Source: a virus (lineage: Duplodnaviria; Heunggongvirae; Uroviricota; Caudoviricetes). From it: DNA of 5,160 nucleotides. The DNA is taken from the IMG/VR virus record IMGVR_UViG_2778261666_000002, positions 1 through 5,160 of that record, one strand, 5' to 3'. The notes under the pieces are model-generated. The model saw nothing but the letters and a program-made list of their open reading frames with translations. It was not told where the DNA came from and made no database searches. Made by a program: the position numbers and the translations under genes. Positions 1 to 5,160 of this stretch are shown piece after piece (the first letter of the stretch is position 1; every line of letters begins with the position of its first letter).

Positions 1-325
1 AGTCCCAGCAAATGTTTGTCCCGTTATCGTTCAGGTTAAGGCGCGCCATTGCGTTACCTGGACTGTCTATCCATTTTTTGAGGTATAGTTCGCAATACGC
101 ATCCTCAACACCTGCTGTCCTGTGAGTTGAGCGGAGTTTTCTCCCAAATATAGCTCCGCTAGTTGGCAATACCTGCTGATACCATGAAGCAGACCAGTCA
201 CCAACGATTTCATCTTTGCTGTCTACATATAATTTTGTTGCGTAGCTTCCTTGATCGTTTTTTAATTTGCTAACGTCGGATTTTAGCGTTTTGATGTCAT
301 CAGGAATTACTGTCGATGTAGCCAT
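1..325 (-). CDS. Hypothetical protein, N-terminal 108 codons only (3' end beyond window start); unknown function
   Basis: ATG at 325..323 preceded by GAGGAAG (the orf93 stop TGA 337..335 lies inside this SD; 9-nt spacing). Hand translation MATSTVIPDDIKTLKSDVSKLKNDQGSYATKLYVDSKDEIVGDWSASWYQQVLPTSGAIFGRKLRSTHRTAGVEDAYCELYLKKWIDSPGNAMARLNLNDNGTNICWD has no stop down to position 1. Absent from the ORF track only because it has no in-window stop. Confidence 0.5.
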   Translation of the reverse strand, partial: MATSTVIPDDIKTLKSDVSKLKNDQGSYATKLYVDSKDEIVGDWSASWYQQVLPTSGAIFGRKLRSTHRTAGVEDAYCELYLKKWIDSPGNAMARLNLNDNGTNICWD

Positions 326-334
326 TTTTCTTCC

Positions 335-616
335 TCACATCCAGCCACGAAGTTGATGCTCAACAGCAACCACGTATTCATCGAATAATGACGATATTTG
401 CGAATCATTAATGATGCGCACGTTTACAAAATATCCGTCTTCCTTAACACATACCGGTTCGCCATCTTCAGTCAGTTCTCCGGTTTCTTTGTACACGTTA
501 CCTATCACGTCAATAAGAATATCATCCTGCATCGACTCGTCATCATAATAGCCAATACTCTCCATAAAGGCCGAAAAGTCGGCCCTGTCGGCAAATTTGA
601 GTGTTAAATCTTTCAT
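335..616 (-). CDS. Hypothetical small acidic protein (93 aa), start overlapping the stf stop; possible tail-fibre accessory or chaperone, function unknown
   Basis: ATG 616..614 overlaps stf TAA 618..616 (TAATG). GGGGGAG lies about 8 nt upstream. About 21 Asp/Glu against about 7 Lys/Arg. No similarity I can recognise to the lambda Tfa / T4 gp38 family. The only competing ORF is a shorter antisense one. Confidence 0.6.
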   Translation of the reverse strand: MKDLTLKFADRADFSAFMESIGYYDDESMQDDILIDVIGNVYKETGELTEDGEPVCVKEDGYFVNVRIINDSQISSLFDEYVVAVEHQLRGWM

Positions 617-2991
617 TAGATTGACTCCCCCACCTGAGCATCAGTCAATGCCTTGTGCCATATTCTGAAATTCCTGACATGACCAAATAAATGACGTAAC
701 CCGGCTGTAGTCTGGCCTCCAATACGGATAATTGCAGTGTTCTGAATATAGGACCATGTGGTTTTTGTTTCGCTGGATATACGCCCGTTACTTACTGAGC
801 ACGTAGACTGATCTGACTTTACACGCATCCCCATAACCATTTTTTCAAGCAATGCGTTTTCGTTTACCCGTCTGTTAGCTCCTCCAATATCGCAATAAGG
901 AAATCCGTCGTAATCTGTTGAACGACCGAAGCCAAGAATAATAGCCGCTCCGGTTTGATGACCGCCGGTATCAAAAACACGTGGCGCTGCATTTGGCGTT
1001 TTATACCAGTTCTTATGTACCTCACAAAGAACCGTAAAAGGAAGATTATAAAGATTATTCTTAATTGGAACTGTAACTATATCGCTTGCGCGGGTCGCCG
1101 CCGTCGTTCCTGATATAATAAAAGATGATACACAAGGCCCATTTTCTACTTGTGGGGTGGCCAGATAAATATAGTCACCAGATACGGTTGCCCCGCCCTG
1201 CTTAGGAGAATACTGTATCTGAGAACCTATTTTTAACTCCCCATCAATTGCCTGAATTGTTGCCTCTGCAAAAATCCATCCGGTAGCTTCGTCCTTTCTG
1301 ACTCTCGCTGTAATCCTTGAGGCAGCGCCGCCTGTCATATTAATTTCAAGCGTTTGTGTATCAATATATGCATCACCAAGAAAAGTTGTTGCGCTACCGT
1401 CATATTTATCAAACCGGATACGCAACCTTACCTGCAGTTCTGTTTTAAAACGACATGAGGTTGTCACGTATTTATTATCGCCTGAGACATCAACTGACTT
1501 TGTTGCAGCAATTGATGCCATATTAATGGCTGAGGTTTGCCCAATCAGAGAATCGTTACAGACAAACTTTCCATAGGTAAAACCAAAACTATCCGTCCCG
1601 GTTTCGGGAACATCCATATTTGACGATCGCCCCCAACTGGCAGGGTTTTCCGAATTGAGCATGTAGTTCGTTCTTTGCCCCTCAATAAGCAGGCCATCAC
1701 GTTCAAACCGTGGCTCGTCAATGGCAGCCTCTGTCAGCACACCAGATTTATTAATATAGGTTGCTTTCGATGCGCGTTTAAACTTTACAACCTTATCGCC
1801 AGGCATCGTTATTTCATCATCACCAATAACAATCTTTTTATATGACGGCGAAAAGCCCGTAATCATATCCAGCGAATCGTTAAACGGTATCCACACATCG
1901 GGAAGCGGCTGCAAAACTTGTTTATACGGCTCCGCAGCCTGGCTTGCATACTCTCTGGCTGCGTCTTCACTTTCTTTAGCTGCCGTCTGGCTTGCAGCGG
2001 ATGCTTTCGCCGAGTTCGCAGCCGCTGTTTCGCTTGTCTTTGCATTGGTTTCACTGGTTTTTGCTGCTTTTTGACTGTTGGCTGATGCAGTGGCAGAAGC
2101 CGCCGCCGCGCTTGCAGAACCAGCTGCGGCACTCTCGCTTTGGGCCGCTGCATCCTGACTGTTTTTCGCCGCAGTTTCGCTGGCTTTGGCATTCGTTTCG
2201 CTGGTCTTCGCTGCCGTCTGGCTGGACTTTGCGTTAGTTTCGCTCGTCTTCGCTGCTTTCTGGCTGTTAGCCGCAGCAGTTGCTGAGCCAGCAGCTGAAG
2301 TCGCAGAACCGGCTGCCGCGCTCTCGCTTTGGGCTGCTGCAGCCTGGCTGTTTTTTGCCGCAGTTTCACTGGCTTTGGCATTCGTTTCGCTGGTTTTCGC
2401 TGCCGTCTGGCTGGACTTTGCGTTAGTTTCACTCGTCTTTGCGGCTGTCTCGCTATTTTTCGCGTTGGTTTCTGATTTTTTGGCTGCTGTCGCGGAGTTT
2501 GCCGATGCAGTCTGTGAGGTCGCTGCCGCCTGTGCGCTGTTAGCTGCATTCGTTTCTGAGGTTTTCGCCGCGTTCTTCGATGATGCCGCTGCAGTTTCGG
2601 ATTTCTTTGCCGCCGCTGCGCTCTGAGAGGCGGCTTCGGCGTTGCGTGCCGCTTCTTCCACCATTTCCTCAAAACGGCGCAATGCCTCCGGCATGACATC
2701 ATCTTCCGTCATGGCACCGAGAAAATCATTCAGCGTACCTGGTCTGGAACCTTCATAGACGGTAATGGTCCCGGCATGTGAAGGCGGAAAACCTTCAACC
2801 AGCAGGGTGACGCTGTACTGGCCATACTCAACATCCATGCTGTAACGTCCGGCTTCATCCGGATTTTCAGAAGCCACCGTGTTCACCAGTACCGTGGTGC
2901 TGTTACGCTTTGCCTTCAGTTGAATAGTGCAGTTCTGTATTGGTTTTCCCGCACCATCTTTCAGCACACCTGAGATTTTTACTGCTGCCAT
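616..2991 (-). CDS. stf: Side tail fibre protein: lambda-Stf-like N-terminal domain, A/S/T/K-rich heptad-repeat shaft, C-terminal LamG/concanavalin-like jelly-roll (putative receptor-binding) domain
   Basis: N-terminus MAAVKISGVLKDGAGKPIQNCTIQLKAKRNSTTV…GRYSMDVEYGQYSV…GFPPSHAGTITVYE matches the lambda Stf N-terminus as recalled. Likely start is ATG 2991..2989, preceded by GGAG (TTTTTTGTGGAGTGGATATG); the ORF track's GTG at 2997 sits inside that SD. Stop TAA at 618..616. C-terminal end …IRIGGQTTAGLRHLFGHVRNFRIWHKALTDAQVGESI resembles the conserved LamG_3 terminal motif. Confidence 0.85.
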   Translation of the reverse strand: MAAVKISGVLKDGAGKPIQNCTIQLKAKRNSTTVLVNTVASENPDEAGRYSMDVEYGQYSVTLLVEGFPPSHAGTITVYEGSRPGTLNDFLGAMTEDDVMPEALRRFEEMVEEAARNAEAASQSAAAAKKSETAAASSKNAAKTSETNAANSAQAAATSQTASANSATAAKKSETNAKNSETAAKTSETNAKSSQTAAKTSETNAKASETAAKNSQAAAAQSESAAAGSATSAAGSATAAANSQKAAKTSETNAKSSQTAAKTSETNAKASETAAKNSQDAAAQSESAAAGSASAAAASATASANSQKAAKTSETNAKTSETAAANSAKASAASQTAAKESEDAAREYASQAAEPYKQVLQPLPDVWIPFNDSLDMITGFSPSYKKIVIGDDEITMPGDKVVKFKRASKATYINKSGVLTEAAIDEPRFERDGLLIEGQRTNYMLNSENPASWGRSSNMDVPETGTDSFGFTYGKFVCNDSLIGQTSAINMASIAATKSVDVSGDNKYVTTSCRFKTELQVRLRIRFDKYDGSATTFLGDAYIDTQTLEINMTGGAASRITARVRKDEATGWIFAEATIQAIDGELKIGSQIQYSPKQGGATVSGDYIYLATPQVENGPCVSSFIISGTTAATRASDIVTVPIKNNLYNLPFTVLCEVHKNWYKTPNAAPRVFDTGGHQTGAAIILGFGRSTDYDGFPYCDIGGANRRVNENALLEKMVMGMRVKSDQSTCSVSNGRISSETKTTWSYIQNTAIIRIGGQTTAGLRHLFGHVRNFRIWHKALTDAQVGESI
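2068..2445 (-). repeat. Two tandem 189-bp units (63 codons each) inside the stf shaft-coding region, embedded in a wider heptad-periodic region (about 1930-2650)
   Basis: 2211-2250 and 2400-2439 are near-identical at a 189-bp offset. Protein copies are residues 185-247 and 248-310 (AAKTSETNAKSSQTAAKTSETNAKASETAAKNSQ… twice), followed by a degenerate partial third copy. Confidence 0.85.
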
Positions 2992-3001
2992 ATCCACTCC
3001 A

Positions 3002-3029
3002 CAAAAAAGCCCGCCAGAATCTGCGGGCT
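3002..3029 (-). terminator. Putative rho-independent terminator after lom (minus-strand RNA: AGCCCGC-agauucug-GCGGGCU followed by UUUUUUGU), overlapping the stf ribosome-binding region
   Basis: 7-bp inverted repeat at + strand 3008-3014 / 3023-3029 with an 8-nt loop. A6 run at 3003-3008 gives a U-tract on the minus strand only. Confidence 0.55.
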
Positions 3030-3055
3030 GTCATAACACTGTGTTACCTGGCTAA

Positions 3056-3655
3056 TCAGAATTTATAACCGACACCCACGATGAAACCGTCAGTGCGCCA
3101 GTCGCCACTGCCGGAACCTTCATAAGCAATATCAATGGCCACGGATTCGGTCGGGTTAAACTGCACGCCAGCCCCCCACGCCAGAGACGTGTTGCTGTGG
3201 CGACCGCCATCACTCCCGGTCAGCACATCGTGCGTTTTCCCCTTGCTGTCAGTTACGCGGAGATAATCCCCGGAGAACGTCGAAACACGGCTGCAAGCCA
3301 CACCTGCCATCGCATAAGCACTGAACCATTCATTCACGCGCACAGACGGCCCCGCCATCATGCTGAACCAGCGGTTACGCACTGAATCTTCATGCCAGCG
3401 GGTATCGCTGTAATGCGTTTTTTGCTCATCTTTGGCATTGGCATAACTGAATGACGTCACCAGCCCCAGCGTGTCCATAAATTCATAACGGTATTTCACG
3501 TTAATGCCCTTCAGGTCATCACTGCCTGGCATATCAGTATGGGTCTGAAGATACCCGGCGCTTAGTGTGGACTGATGCTCTGCTGCGCTCGCTGGCGTAC
3601 CAGCGGCAACCAGCCAGACTACTGCGGACAGAATAACAGCACATAATTTACGCAT
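3056..3655 (-). CDS. lom: Lom/Ail/PagC/OmpX-family outer-membrane beta-barrel protein (lambda Lom homologue), 199 aa
   Basis: N-terminal signal peptide MRKLCAVILSAVVWLVAAGTPASA^AE (A-x-A cleavage site). Internal GINVKYRYE and SAYAMAGVA motifs and C-terminal IAYEGSGSGDWRTDGFIVGVGYKF with terminal Phe, matching lambda Lom as I recall it. Position directly after J is the canonical lom position. Confidence 0.93.
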   Translation of the reverse strand: MRKLCAVILSAVVWLVAAGTPASAAEHQSTLSAGYLQTHTDMPGSDDLKGINVKYRYEFMDTLGLVTSFSYANAKDEQKTHYSDTRWHEDSVRNRWFSMMAGPSVRVNEWFSAYAMAGVACSRVSTFSGDYLRVTDSKGKTHDVLTGSDGGRHSNTSLAWGAGVQFNPTESVAIDIAYEGSGSGDWRTDGFIVGVGYKF

Positions 3656-3660
3656 AATTA

Positions 3661-3666
3661 CCTCTC
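3661..3666 (-). promoter_or_regulatory. Shine-Dalgarno GAGAGG, 5 nt upstream of the lom ATG
   Basis: Reverse complement of 3656-3670 is AAGCGAGAGGTAATT, immediately followed by ATG (3655..3653). Confidence 0.6.
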
Positions 3667-3674
3667 GCTTTTCT

Positions 3675-3704
3675 GCAATAAAAAAGGCGTCATTTCTGAC
3701 GCCC
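3675..3704 (-). terminator. Putative rho-independent terminator directly after the J stop (minus-strand RNA: GGCGUCA-gaaa-UGACGCC followed by UUUUUUAUU)
   Basis: Perfect 7-bp inverted repeat at + strand 3686-3692 / 3697-3703 with a 4-nt loop. A-run at 3681-3685 on the + strand gives a U-tract only for minus-strand transcription. Confidence 0.6.
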
Positions 3705-3722
3705 GTATTGGGGTTATAAAAT

Positions 3723-5160
3723 TCAGCTGATACTGATGCCTGCGGTGGCTTTCTTCATCACCACAACCAGCAAATCGCTGATACTTGCTGTGGGATACCA
3801 GTCATTTACCAGCCATGCTGACACCGAAAACTCCAGCGTCATGTGACCGTGACCGGCAGGCATATCAATAACGCCACTGTAAATCAGCGTATTATCCAGC
3901 GCGGTACGGTTATAAATTTCAGCACCGTTTTTCCGCACTATCAGACGGCATGAGGAGTAAATATCAGTATGCTCTCTCTCATGTTTAGCGCCGCTGAATG
4001 CCACCGCCGGAATAACAATCTGCCGGTCAAACGGCTGATCGTCATAAATCCTGACGGTAATGGTCCCTGATGGCCACCGTTCCGGTGCACGGGAGTCCCG
4101 GGGGAAAGCTTTGCCCACTGTTTTAACGAGATCGCCTTCAATCTGGTTCGCGGACAGTTTTCCCAGAACCCGGCAGTTCTCGTTAATCGTGACGTTGTTG
4201 AGCGACCCGGAGTTCGCATTCACGTTACCGCTGATATCGGCATTTTTCGCCGTCAGCCGCCCGTCCGGTGTCAGGGAAAATGCCGGAGGATTACCGCCGC
4301 TGGTAATGGTGGGAGCCGTCAGATATTTCAGGAACACTTCGTTCATGAATATCTGATCGCCCTGACCAACAAACATCGGCCTTGTGTTGCCATTCGCAGG
4401 ATTAACCATCGCAATCCTGTCCGCCGCCAGCAGCACCTGACTCTGCATACCGTCAGGAGTATTCTCAATACCGGCACCAATACCCGCGATATAAAGGCGT
4501 CCGTCCTGCATCTGCTGCAGCTTCACAGCCCACATGCTGTTCAGGTTATTATTTGTATCAACCTGAACCTTCTGTATCTGCTGAATTGCCGCACTCTGGT
4601 CTTCCAGTTTCTTATTGACGGTCTGCGTGATTTCATTGCTGACATCCGTAATGGACGTCCTGATTTCAGCCAGGTCAGGCGCAAGCTGACCGTTATCAAT
4701 CTGCGTCCACAGCTCCTGAGCCAGATGGCTTTTCCCTATCTCGCCTTTGAAAAAATCCAGATAGCCGGATGCATCATCACTCGGCTGGCCAACAGCCTCC
4801 ACAAATGCCGATTTGCCAACGGTGTTCACACTGCGGATGTAAAAATAATAATCATGGCCCGGTTTGATATTGATACTGGCGGCTATCCAGTACAGCGCCG
4901 TACCAAGATAGCGGGCTGTGGTTTCAACCTGCCTGATATCGGTAATCCGCTTTTCCGAGAACCAGAACTCAAACTGTACCGTCGGGTCATAAACCGCAAG
5001 ATGCGGCGTGGCGGTTATCTGAAAATAGCCCGGCGTCAGCTCAATCCTCGACGGTGCTGCCGGTGCGGCAATCCGGAACGATACCGACGCCGGATCGCCC
5101 TGCTGCCCCCACGCATTTACCGCCCGGACTGTCAGCCTGTAGTTCCCCAGCGCCAGTTGC
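3723..5160 (-). CDS. J: Host-specificity / central tail fibre protein J, C-terminal about 479 codons; 5' end lies beyond the window. TGA stop at 3725..3723.
   Basis: Hand translation of the minus-strand frame from 5159 down to 3723 is uninterrupted (…[41 protein letters not shown]…[23 protein letters not shown]…[31 protein letters not shown]…). It matches lambda J as I recall it, including the MPAG…KK…GISI-type C-terminus. The ORF track's 368-aa call simply begins at the first in-frame GTG (4829); the frame stays open upstream of it. Confidence 0.9.

Follow-up and report, generated by a model that had tools for sequence, protein, structure and literature searches.

The two hairpins that flank the lom gene in the DNA analysed here (5,160 nucleotides, referred to throughout as the window) are probably ordinary Rho-independent terminators internal to the Q-antiterminated late operon of a lambda-like E. 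coli prophage, a reading to which we give a probability of about 70%. The first hairpin, T1, lies in the gap between J and lom, and the second, T2, in the gap between lom and stf. After induction, polymerase modified by Q at pR' would ignore both T1 and T2 and produce a single J-lom-stf message. In the repressed prophage T1 would stop unmodified polymerase that comes from upstream and T2 would stop polymerase having transcribed lom, leaving stf and the genes beyond it silent. The analysis shows where the structures lie, which way they point, how they are conserved and covary, and that lom lacks a recognisable promoter; from anatomy, covariation and homology we infer that the hairpins terminate transcription, that Q allows read-through and that stf is kept silent. 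Lambda Q biology makes it reasonable to suppose that stf depends on antiterminated transcription.

The genes, hairpins and concepts involved are already known, and the same elements are found in lambda and K-12. What is added here is quantitative support, in the form of T1 covariation, together with a correction of the "classic moron" label that the earlier note had applied, and with it of the view that lom forms a self-contained cassette of promoter, gene and terminator. The outcome is two well-supported terminator features for lambda-like prophages, neither of which is annotated in the RefSeq lambda record, with little significance beyond annotation. A conserved terminator before the lom ribosome-binding site, with no recognisable promoter, also bears on the expression of lom in lysogens, and Lom is linked to adhesion in lysogens.

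Genes and intergenic hairpins of the window

All long open reading frames in the ORF list of the window lie on the minus strand, and the gene identities given in the earlier note are supported by Pfam. The tail-tip gene J is represented by its 3' part (the C-terminal 478 codons at 5159..3723, feature 3723..5160, running off the window), which ends in a TGA stop codon at 3725-3723 and carries the domains Ig_J_second, Phage_Tail_Tip and Ig_GpJ_C; it is also annotated as J in phages that are 96-98% identical to the window. Downstream of it lies lom (3056..3655, minus strand), whose product belongs to the Ail/Lom outer-membrane protein family (PF06316, Ail_Lom), the profile covering the protein end to end with residues 1-199 on positions 1-199 (E=7.3e-125). 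A Shine-Dalgarno (SD) sequence, GAGAGG, can be read from the sequence at 3661..3666, 5 nt before the lom ATG. The side tail fibre gene stf (616..2991, minus strand; phage_tail_N, E=7e-67) encodes 791 aa from the ATG at 2991. The ORF list places its start at GTG 2997, and the SD spacing and the lambda homologue, which begins at the ATG equivalent to 2991, favour the latter (MAAVKISG...). Its N-terminal domain is conserved with lambda in the identity profile.

Several minor features lie further along the same strand. The middle of stf holds a tandem repeat of 189 nt (window 2114-2454, 1.8 copies, 90% match) with nested 42- and 21-nt periods, which encodes an Ala/Ser/Thr/Lys-rich fibre-shaft repeat (..KTSETNAK..), and it is this low-complexity region that gives rise to the long plus-strand ORFs at 1863-2702. 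Overlapping the stf stop is a 93-codon ORF (616..335, minus strand), followed by the start of a further minus-strand ORF running from 325 (window 1-325); neither has a Pfam match, both are only "hypothetical" in relatives, and they occupy the position of lambda tfa. From the C-terminal half of stf onward the G+C content falls to 42-44%, a drop that points to separate acquisition of a receptor-binding module.

Lambdoid coliphages such as PhiR46_1 and 2G7b share 96-98% identity with the lom region (2900-3800), prophages of many E. coli chromosomes are 97.6-98.2% identical to the window over its whole length, and 4986 of 5426 complete genomes contain some match to it. Apart from the J-lom and lom-stf gaps, each of which holds one hairpin, the window has no sizeable intergenic gap.

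The hairpins with U-tracts described in the earlier note at 3675-3704 and 3002-3029 were both located there, and their minus-strand orientation was borne out, in that the T-runs follow the stems on the minus strand only and both elements are co-oriented with the genes. T1 (3677..3704) reads GGGCGTCA-GAAA-TGACGCCT followed by TTTTT-A-TT, with its 5' arm at 3704-3697, its 3' arm at 3692-3685, a stem of 8 pairs (5 G-C), a loop of 4 nt and a T6 run at 3685-3680. It begins 18 nt past the J stop, and the whole gap on the minus strand is TGA-ATTTTATAACCCCAATAC-GGGCGTCA-GAAA-TGACGCCT-TTTTT-ATTGCAGAAAAGC-GAGAGG-TAATT-ATG, so that only 24 nt (3679-3656), SD included, separate the T-run from the lom ATG. 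T2 (3001..3029) reads AGCCCGC-AGATTCTG-GCGGGCT followed by TTTTT-GT, with its 5' arm at 3029-3023, its 3' arm at 3014-3008, a stem of 7 pairs (6 G-C), a loop of 8 nt and a T6 run at 3008-3003. It begins 26 nt past the lom stop, in a gap that reads TGA-...ATGAC-AGCCCGC-AGATTCTG-GCGGGCT-TTTTT-GT-GGAG-TGGAT-ATG on the minus strand. The stf SD, GGAG (2997..3000), stands 5 nt before the ATG; T2 had been said to overlap it, and the T-run ending at 3003 in fact leaves a gap of 2 nt, so that the terminator abuts the SD.

Both hairpins are stable. In isolation T1 folds at -13.1 kcal/mol (z -4.6, with 0 of 200 shuffles as good) and T2 at -13.4 kcal/mol (z -3.0, with 1 of 200 as good), and both are kept in the minimum free energy and centroid folds of 150-180 nt contexts, in which no competing structure or alternative pairing to either is predicted; weak stability, which the earlier note had named as grounds against its reading, was not found. 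Each has a G+C-rich stem within the usual range of about 5-14 bp, a short loop, a 3' T-run and a position past a stop codon, as intrinsic terminators do. A loose terminator scan showed no overall enrichment in the window (7 sites against 5.9 expected in shuffles), and T1 and T2 were its top two entries. Under a strict criterion that was set post hoc, after T1 and T2 had been seen (perfect stem of at least 7 bp with at least 5 G-C pairs, loop of 3-8 nt, at least 6 T in 7), they were the only matches on either strand; across 300 dinucleotide shuffles the mean was 0.01 sites, with no shuffle giving two. A d'Aubenton-Carafa-type score was positive for T1, T2 and both of their lambda counterparts (hairpins of up to 40 nt). 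An Rfam scan of the window returned sub-threshold chance matches only, the single one near the hairpins being Trp_leader over T2 (E=0.15, 23.9 bits against a gathering score of 41).

Conservation and covariation across related loci

The conservation of both elements was followed in 160 related loci from IMG/VR, which fall into three Lom allele classes: window-like, lambda-like, and a class that is 60-85% identical to one or the other. The lom SD GAGAGG is invariant among the W-class loci. A T1-type hairpin with its T-run is present in 158 of the 160, ending 23-29 nt before the lom ATG, and the two loci without it have, respectively, unrelated upstream sequence and an insertion sequence in the left arm. 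For the lom-stf gap 157 loci carry enough downstream sequence to be informative, and a terminator stands directly before stf in 152 of them, this being T2 in 134 and an unrelated terminator in 18; neither is found in the other 5. The 18 loci have a different lom-stf spacer of about 155 nt, with the unrelated strong terminator at its end, directly before the stf SD.

In an alignment of 25 variants of T1, three pairs show double changes, in 18 cells, and 98% of cells are paired; 0 of 500 shuffles reach the covariation observed, so that T1 displays the compensatory changes expected of an intrinsic terminator. Whole stems are interchangeable among loci (GGGCGTCA/TGACGCC, GGGCGCCA/TGGCGCC, GGGCACCA/TGGTGCC and GGGCACCTC/GAGGTGCC), with the paired replacements GTCA/TGAC, GCCA/TGGC, ACCA/TGGT and ACCTC/GAGGT. 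Judged from these alignments, T1 is kept by structure and not by sequence. GNRA-type loops (GAAA or GGAA) are recurrent among the variants, the stem type correlates with the lom allele class, and a motif, TTTATAACCC, is conserved directly upstream of the hairpin. T2 is 96.6% paired over 15 variants, with 7 wobble-compatible single changes and 0 double changes. It lies inside a block, extending from the last ~75 nt of lom through the N-terminal domain of stf, over which window and lambda are 80-100% identical, whereas the end of J, T1 and most of lom are 40-70% identical in the same comparison; because of this location, and without a double compensatory change, the conservation of T2 may be due in part to hitch-hiking.

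Some individual loci deserve mention in their own right. In locus L139 (~2945-2970) T1 has the same stem with its loop reverse-complemented (GGGCGCCA-TTTC-TGGCGCC in place of -GAAA-), which resembles a hairpin-loop inversion. Two loci have lom parted from J by mobile elements, an IS3-family orfA/orfB insertion beside T1 in L078 (1719-2932) and an IS4-like transposase element in the T1 left arm in L135 (1545-2555). The idea that T1-lom-T2 moves as a cassette was considered on the strength of two loci with lom and no J upstream, and it was dropped, these being insertions beside or inside T1 and hence uninformative. In L015, L024 and L028 the divergence begins right after T2 TTTTTTGTG, with the start of stf about 776 nt beyond it; the joint, whether an insertion or a mosaic one, falls exactly at the boundary between terminator and SD.

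The alternative spacer of about 155 nt (L048 3601-3755; also L067, L123-L125 and others among the 18 loci), which takes the place of T2, consists of a long 5' hairpin, a single-stranded stretch and a strong terminator (GAAGCCCG...CGGGCTTTTTTT), and some versions contain a promoter-like TTCTGT...TGGTATAAT. It folds at -43.9 kcal/mol (z=-5.1), has no Rfam match and looks like an unannotated prophage small RNA gene. The small RNA 24B_1 of phi24B, located "between lom and vb_24B_43", was considered and set aside as of no relevance to the window, being encoded in a different, 428-nt spacer of short-tailed Stx phages in which its authors found no intrinsic terminator (PMC4426718).

A search of GTDB genomes for Lom in more distant contexts returned the same alleles and no new diversity, along with many low-coverage contigs of the lambda-DNA contaminant type. 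Among the genome contigs, L175-L186 are lambda-type lom loci about 45% identical to the window Lom, as lambda Lom is. Their contigs are of low coverage, some of them ~48.4-48.5 kb long, in assemblies that carry the labels Pseudomonas, Shewanella, Neobacillus, Bradyrhizobium and others, and are most likely lambda control-DNA contamination of these assemblies.

Terminators in late operons and the moron label

Lambda (NC_001416, 18903-19650) has the same J-lom-stf order as the window, and each of the two gaps holds a hairpin and T-tract that stands as far from the start codon as it does here. Its T2 is homologous to that of the window, whereas its T1 is unrelated in sequence (CGTCCG-GGAA-CGGGCG-TTTTATTAT) and weaker (-9 kcal/mol, with an interrupted T-run). 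Lambda Lom is only ~45% identical to the window protein, and the C-terminal part of stf and the downstream genes also differ. The Rac prophage of K-12 has the same T2 between lomR and stfR, its lomR being split by IS5Y. Literature searches for mapped RNA 3' ends at T1 or T2, lom transcripts, a lom promoter or lomR-stfR terminators found none.

The two lom-flanking gaps are not the only ones so equipped. A scan of the lambda late operon for hairpins with a T-rich tail and a dG of -8 kcal/mol or lower found elements in the gaps D|E, E|FI, I|J, J|lom and lom|stf, among them one at 15461-15494 in the I|J gap and one on either side of the capsid gene E (6099-6116 and 7163-7180), with five further matches, one upstream of nu1 and four in coding sequence (A, C and two in I). 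PhiR46_1, a close relative of this phage, likewise has a hairpin in its I|J gap, AACCGCC-TGCG-GGCGGTT-TTGTCGTTT, 20 nt before J, and in locus L002 (8345-8310, minus strand) the I-J gap holds AACCGCC-TGCG-GGCGGTT with a T-rich tail ~20 nt before the J ATG. The N15 record annotates stem-loops as "putative rho-indep. terminator" immediately in front of gene 21 (J) and of the tail-fibre gene 25, the latter coming after the accessory genes 22-24, cor included. The HK97 record, which comes from the authors of the term "moron", lists gp22 as a "moron product" and after it, 11 nt before J, a "putative terminator", as lom is followed by T2. These equivalent hairpins in other lambdoid late-operon gaps, together with the HK97 and N15 annotations, argue for a general feature and not for a lom-specific insulator, and insulation of lom in particular, as the earlier note had it, is not supported: T1 is one more of the hairpin/T-tract elements that punctuate lambdoid late-operon gaps.

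Beyond the lambdoid phages, the conAn processive-antitermination operon of pLS20 contains several internal terminators with 7-11 bp stems, which curb spurious transcription and are bypassed by modified polymerase only (PMC10325885). The operons of lambda Q/pR', N15 and pLS20 conAn share with the window several intrinsic terminators, with 7-9 bp stems, in the gaps of a long operon, which only modified polymerase is presumed to pass. Judged from lambda synteny and its 96-98% identity to complete lambdoid phages, the window itself probably belongs to a Q/pR' operon, Q, qut/pR' and tR' lying outside it.

Reviews describe a moron as an accessory gene that has been inserted and carries a promoter and a terminator of its own, often with deviant composition (PMC3594210, PMC8065619, PMC2629481). 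What speaks for the moron label in the case of lom is its insertion between late genes in some relatives, its dispensability in lambda (PMC10695390), its own downstream terminator and the matching hairpins of lambda; a promoter of its own in the sigma-70 search and a deviant base composition are not seen, and a pair of flanking terminators departs from the classic moron layout of own promoter, gene and own terminator. Since T2 would stop polymerase that has transcribed lom, it may be regarded as a moron-style terminator of lom. Morons were defined for HK97 and HK022 by Juhala et al. in 2000 (reviewed in PMC3594210). Morons of that type resemble lom in being accessory genes among late genes with a terminator directly before the next ribosome-binding site and differ from it in their own promoter and usually deviant composition; HK97 gp22, unlike lom, has no upstream terminator, so that the double bracket is foreign to the classic layout. 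In P22 the ant moron before the tailspike gene is, like lom, an accessory cassette between the morphogenetic cluster and a fibre or spike gene, and is thought to affect the number of late transcripts reaching the tailspike gene (PMC2629481), but it differs in its genes and regulation (mnt/arc/sar/ant) and in having documented promoters.

Competing readings of the hairpins

The most serious alternative, though a doubtful one, is that lom is an autonomous, insulated moron, transcribed in the lysogen from a promoter of its own, with T2 ending the transcript and T1 shielding the gene from upstream transcription. In its favour, lambda lom has been reported as expressed in lysogens, from the repressed prophage (PMC7067206, PMC1151598), the gene is dispensable and is absent between J and the fibre gene both in HK97, where J is followed by stf, and in N15, where other genes occupy that place, T2 stands at the expected position of a moron terminator, and the T1 stem type tracks the lom allele class. 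Against it stands first the search for a promoter, in which the earlier note's failure to find a convincing sigma70 promoter was confirmed. Consensus and position weight matrix (PWM) scans of the minus strand up to 450 nt upstream of lom gave no convincing sigma-70-like promoter; the best PWM score was 6.7 bits, which dozens of random positions reach, the matrix, built from consensus frequencies, covering sigma-70-like promoters only. The same search upstream of lom in lambda and in the third allele class gave nothing convincing or positionally conserved. Three individual hexamers were considered and rejected as lom promoters: TATAAC upstream of T1, from which the RNA would terminate at once, TATTGC in the T1 tail, and in lambda TATTAT, which overlaps the T1 tail, is absent from the window and has no usable -35.

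The geometry of the gap also weighs against insulation. With only 24 nt between T1 and the ATG, any lom promoter must lie upstream of T1 and fire through it, so that T1 would sit inside, and not in front of, any lom transcript; the suggestion that lom could be expressed alone accordingly finds no support in the sequence. If lom does have its own promoter, T1 would be part of its leader and would have to be leaky or regulated. Base composition is equally unhelpful to this alternative, in that the G+C content of lom (54.0%, GC3 57%) matches that of J (52.9%, GC3 60%), and the foreign composition that is a hallmark of morons is thus absent. Equivalent hairpins also occur in gaps without a moron, and one array study from 2007 did not detect lom in a lysogen and called its promoter little known (PMC2147009).

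Under the preferred reading, of ordinary terminators within a Q-antiterminated operon, any lysogenic expression of lom here would come from transcripts begun in or before the 3' end of J and leaking through T1, and the reported lysogenic expression of lambda lom is awkward if T1 is efficient 24 nt before the ATG with no later promoter. A passage in one paper (PMC9836094, citing Liu 2013) describes Lom as strongly expressed in the lytic cycle, and such expression would require read-through of T1.

It is rather unlikely, and less probable than an autonomous lom, that the hairpins act mainly as RNA-stability or processing elements, tuning relative protein yields rather than stopping polymerase. 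Once the long late transcript had been cut by an endonuclease, the hairpins would shield the J and lom segments at their 3' ends, or T1 would shield lom at its 5' end. The similar hairpins flanking the lambda major capsid gene E, the placement of all such hairpins 16-29 nt before the next start codon and the recurrence of GNRA-type loops in the T1 variants fit such a role, but a long uninterrupted T-run, conserved at both sites, would be needless for 3' protection. The two roles are not exclusive.

Less probable again is that T1 is an attenuator in the lom leader, where transcripts from a weak promoter in the end of J would mostly stop at T1 and read through it conditionally; in one variant the short T1-terminated RNA might act as a prophage small RNA. 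Such a regulatory leader, if real, would explain expression of lom in lysogens despite no visible promoter, along with a covarying leader terminator. The position of T1 directly before the lom SD, the conservation of TTTATAACCC immediately upstream of it and the lysogenic expression reported despite T1 are in keeping with this proposal. It is opposed by the folds, which predict no alternative (antiterminator) pairing, by the Rfam scan, in which no leader or riboswitch matched at threshold, and by the candidate -10 hexamers (TATAAC or TATTAA), which lack the key final T and have no -35 partner.

That T1 and T2 are chance inverted repeats beside T-rich sequence, as the near-shuffle count of the loose scan might suggest, is effectively refuted by the covariation of T1 together with the strict shuffles (0.01 expected against 2 observed), and stands equally against the confinement of both elements to the only two intergenic gaps, on the coding strand, and their near-universal presence in the 160 loci and in lambda.
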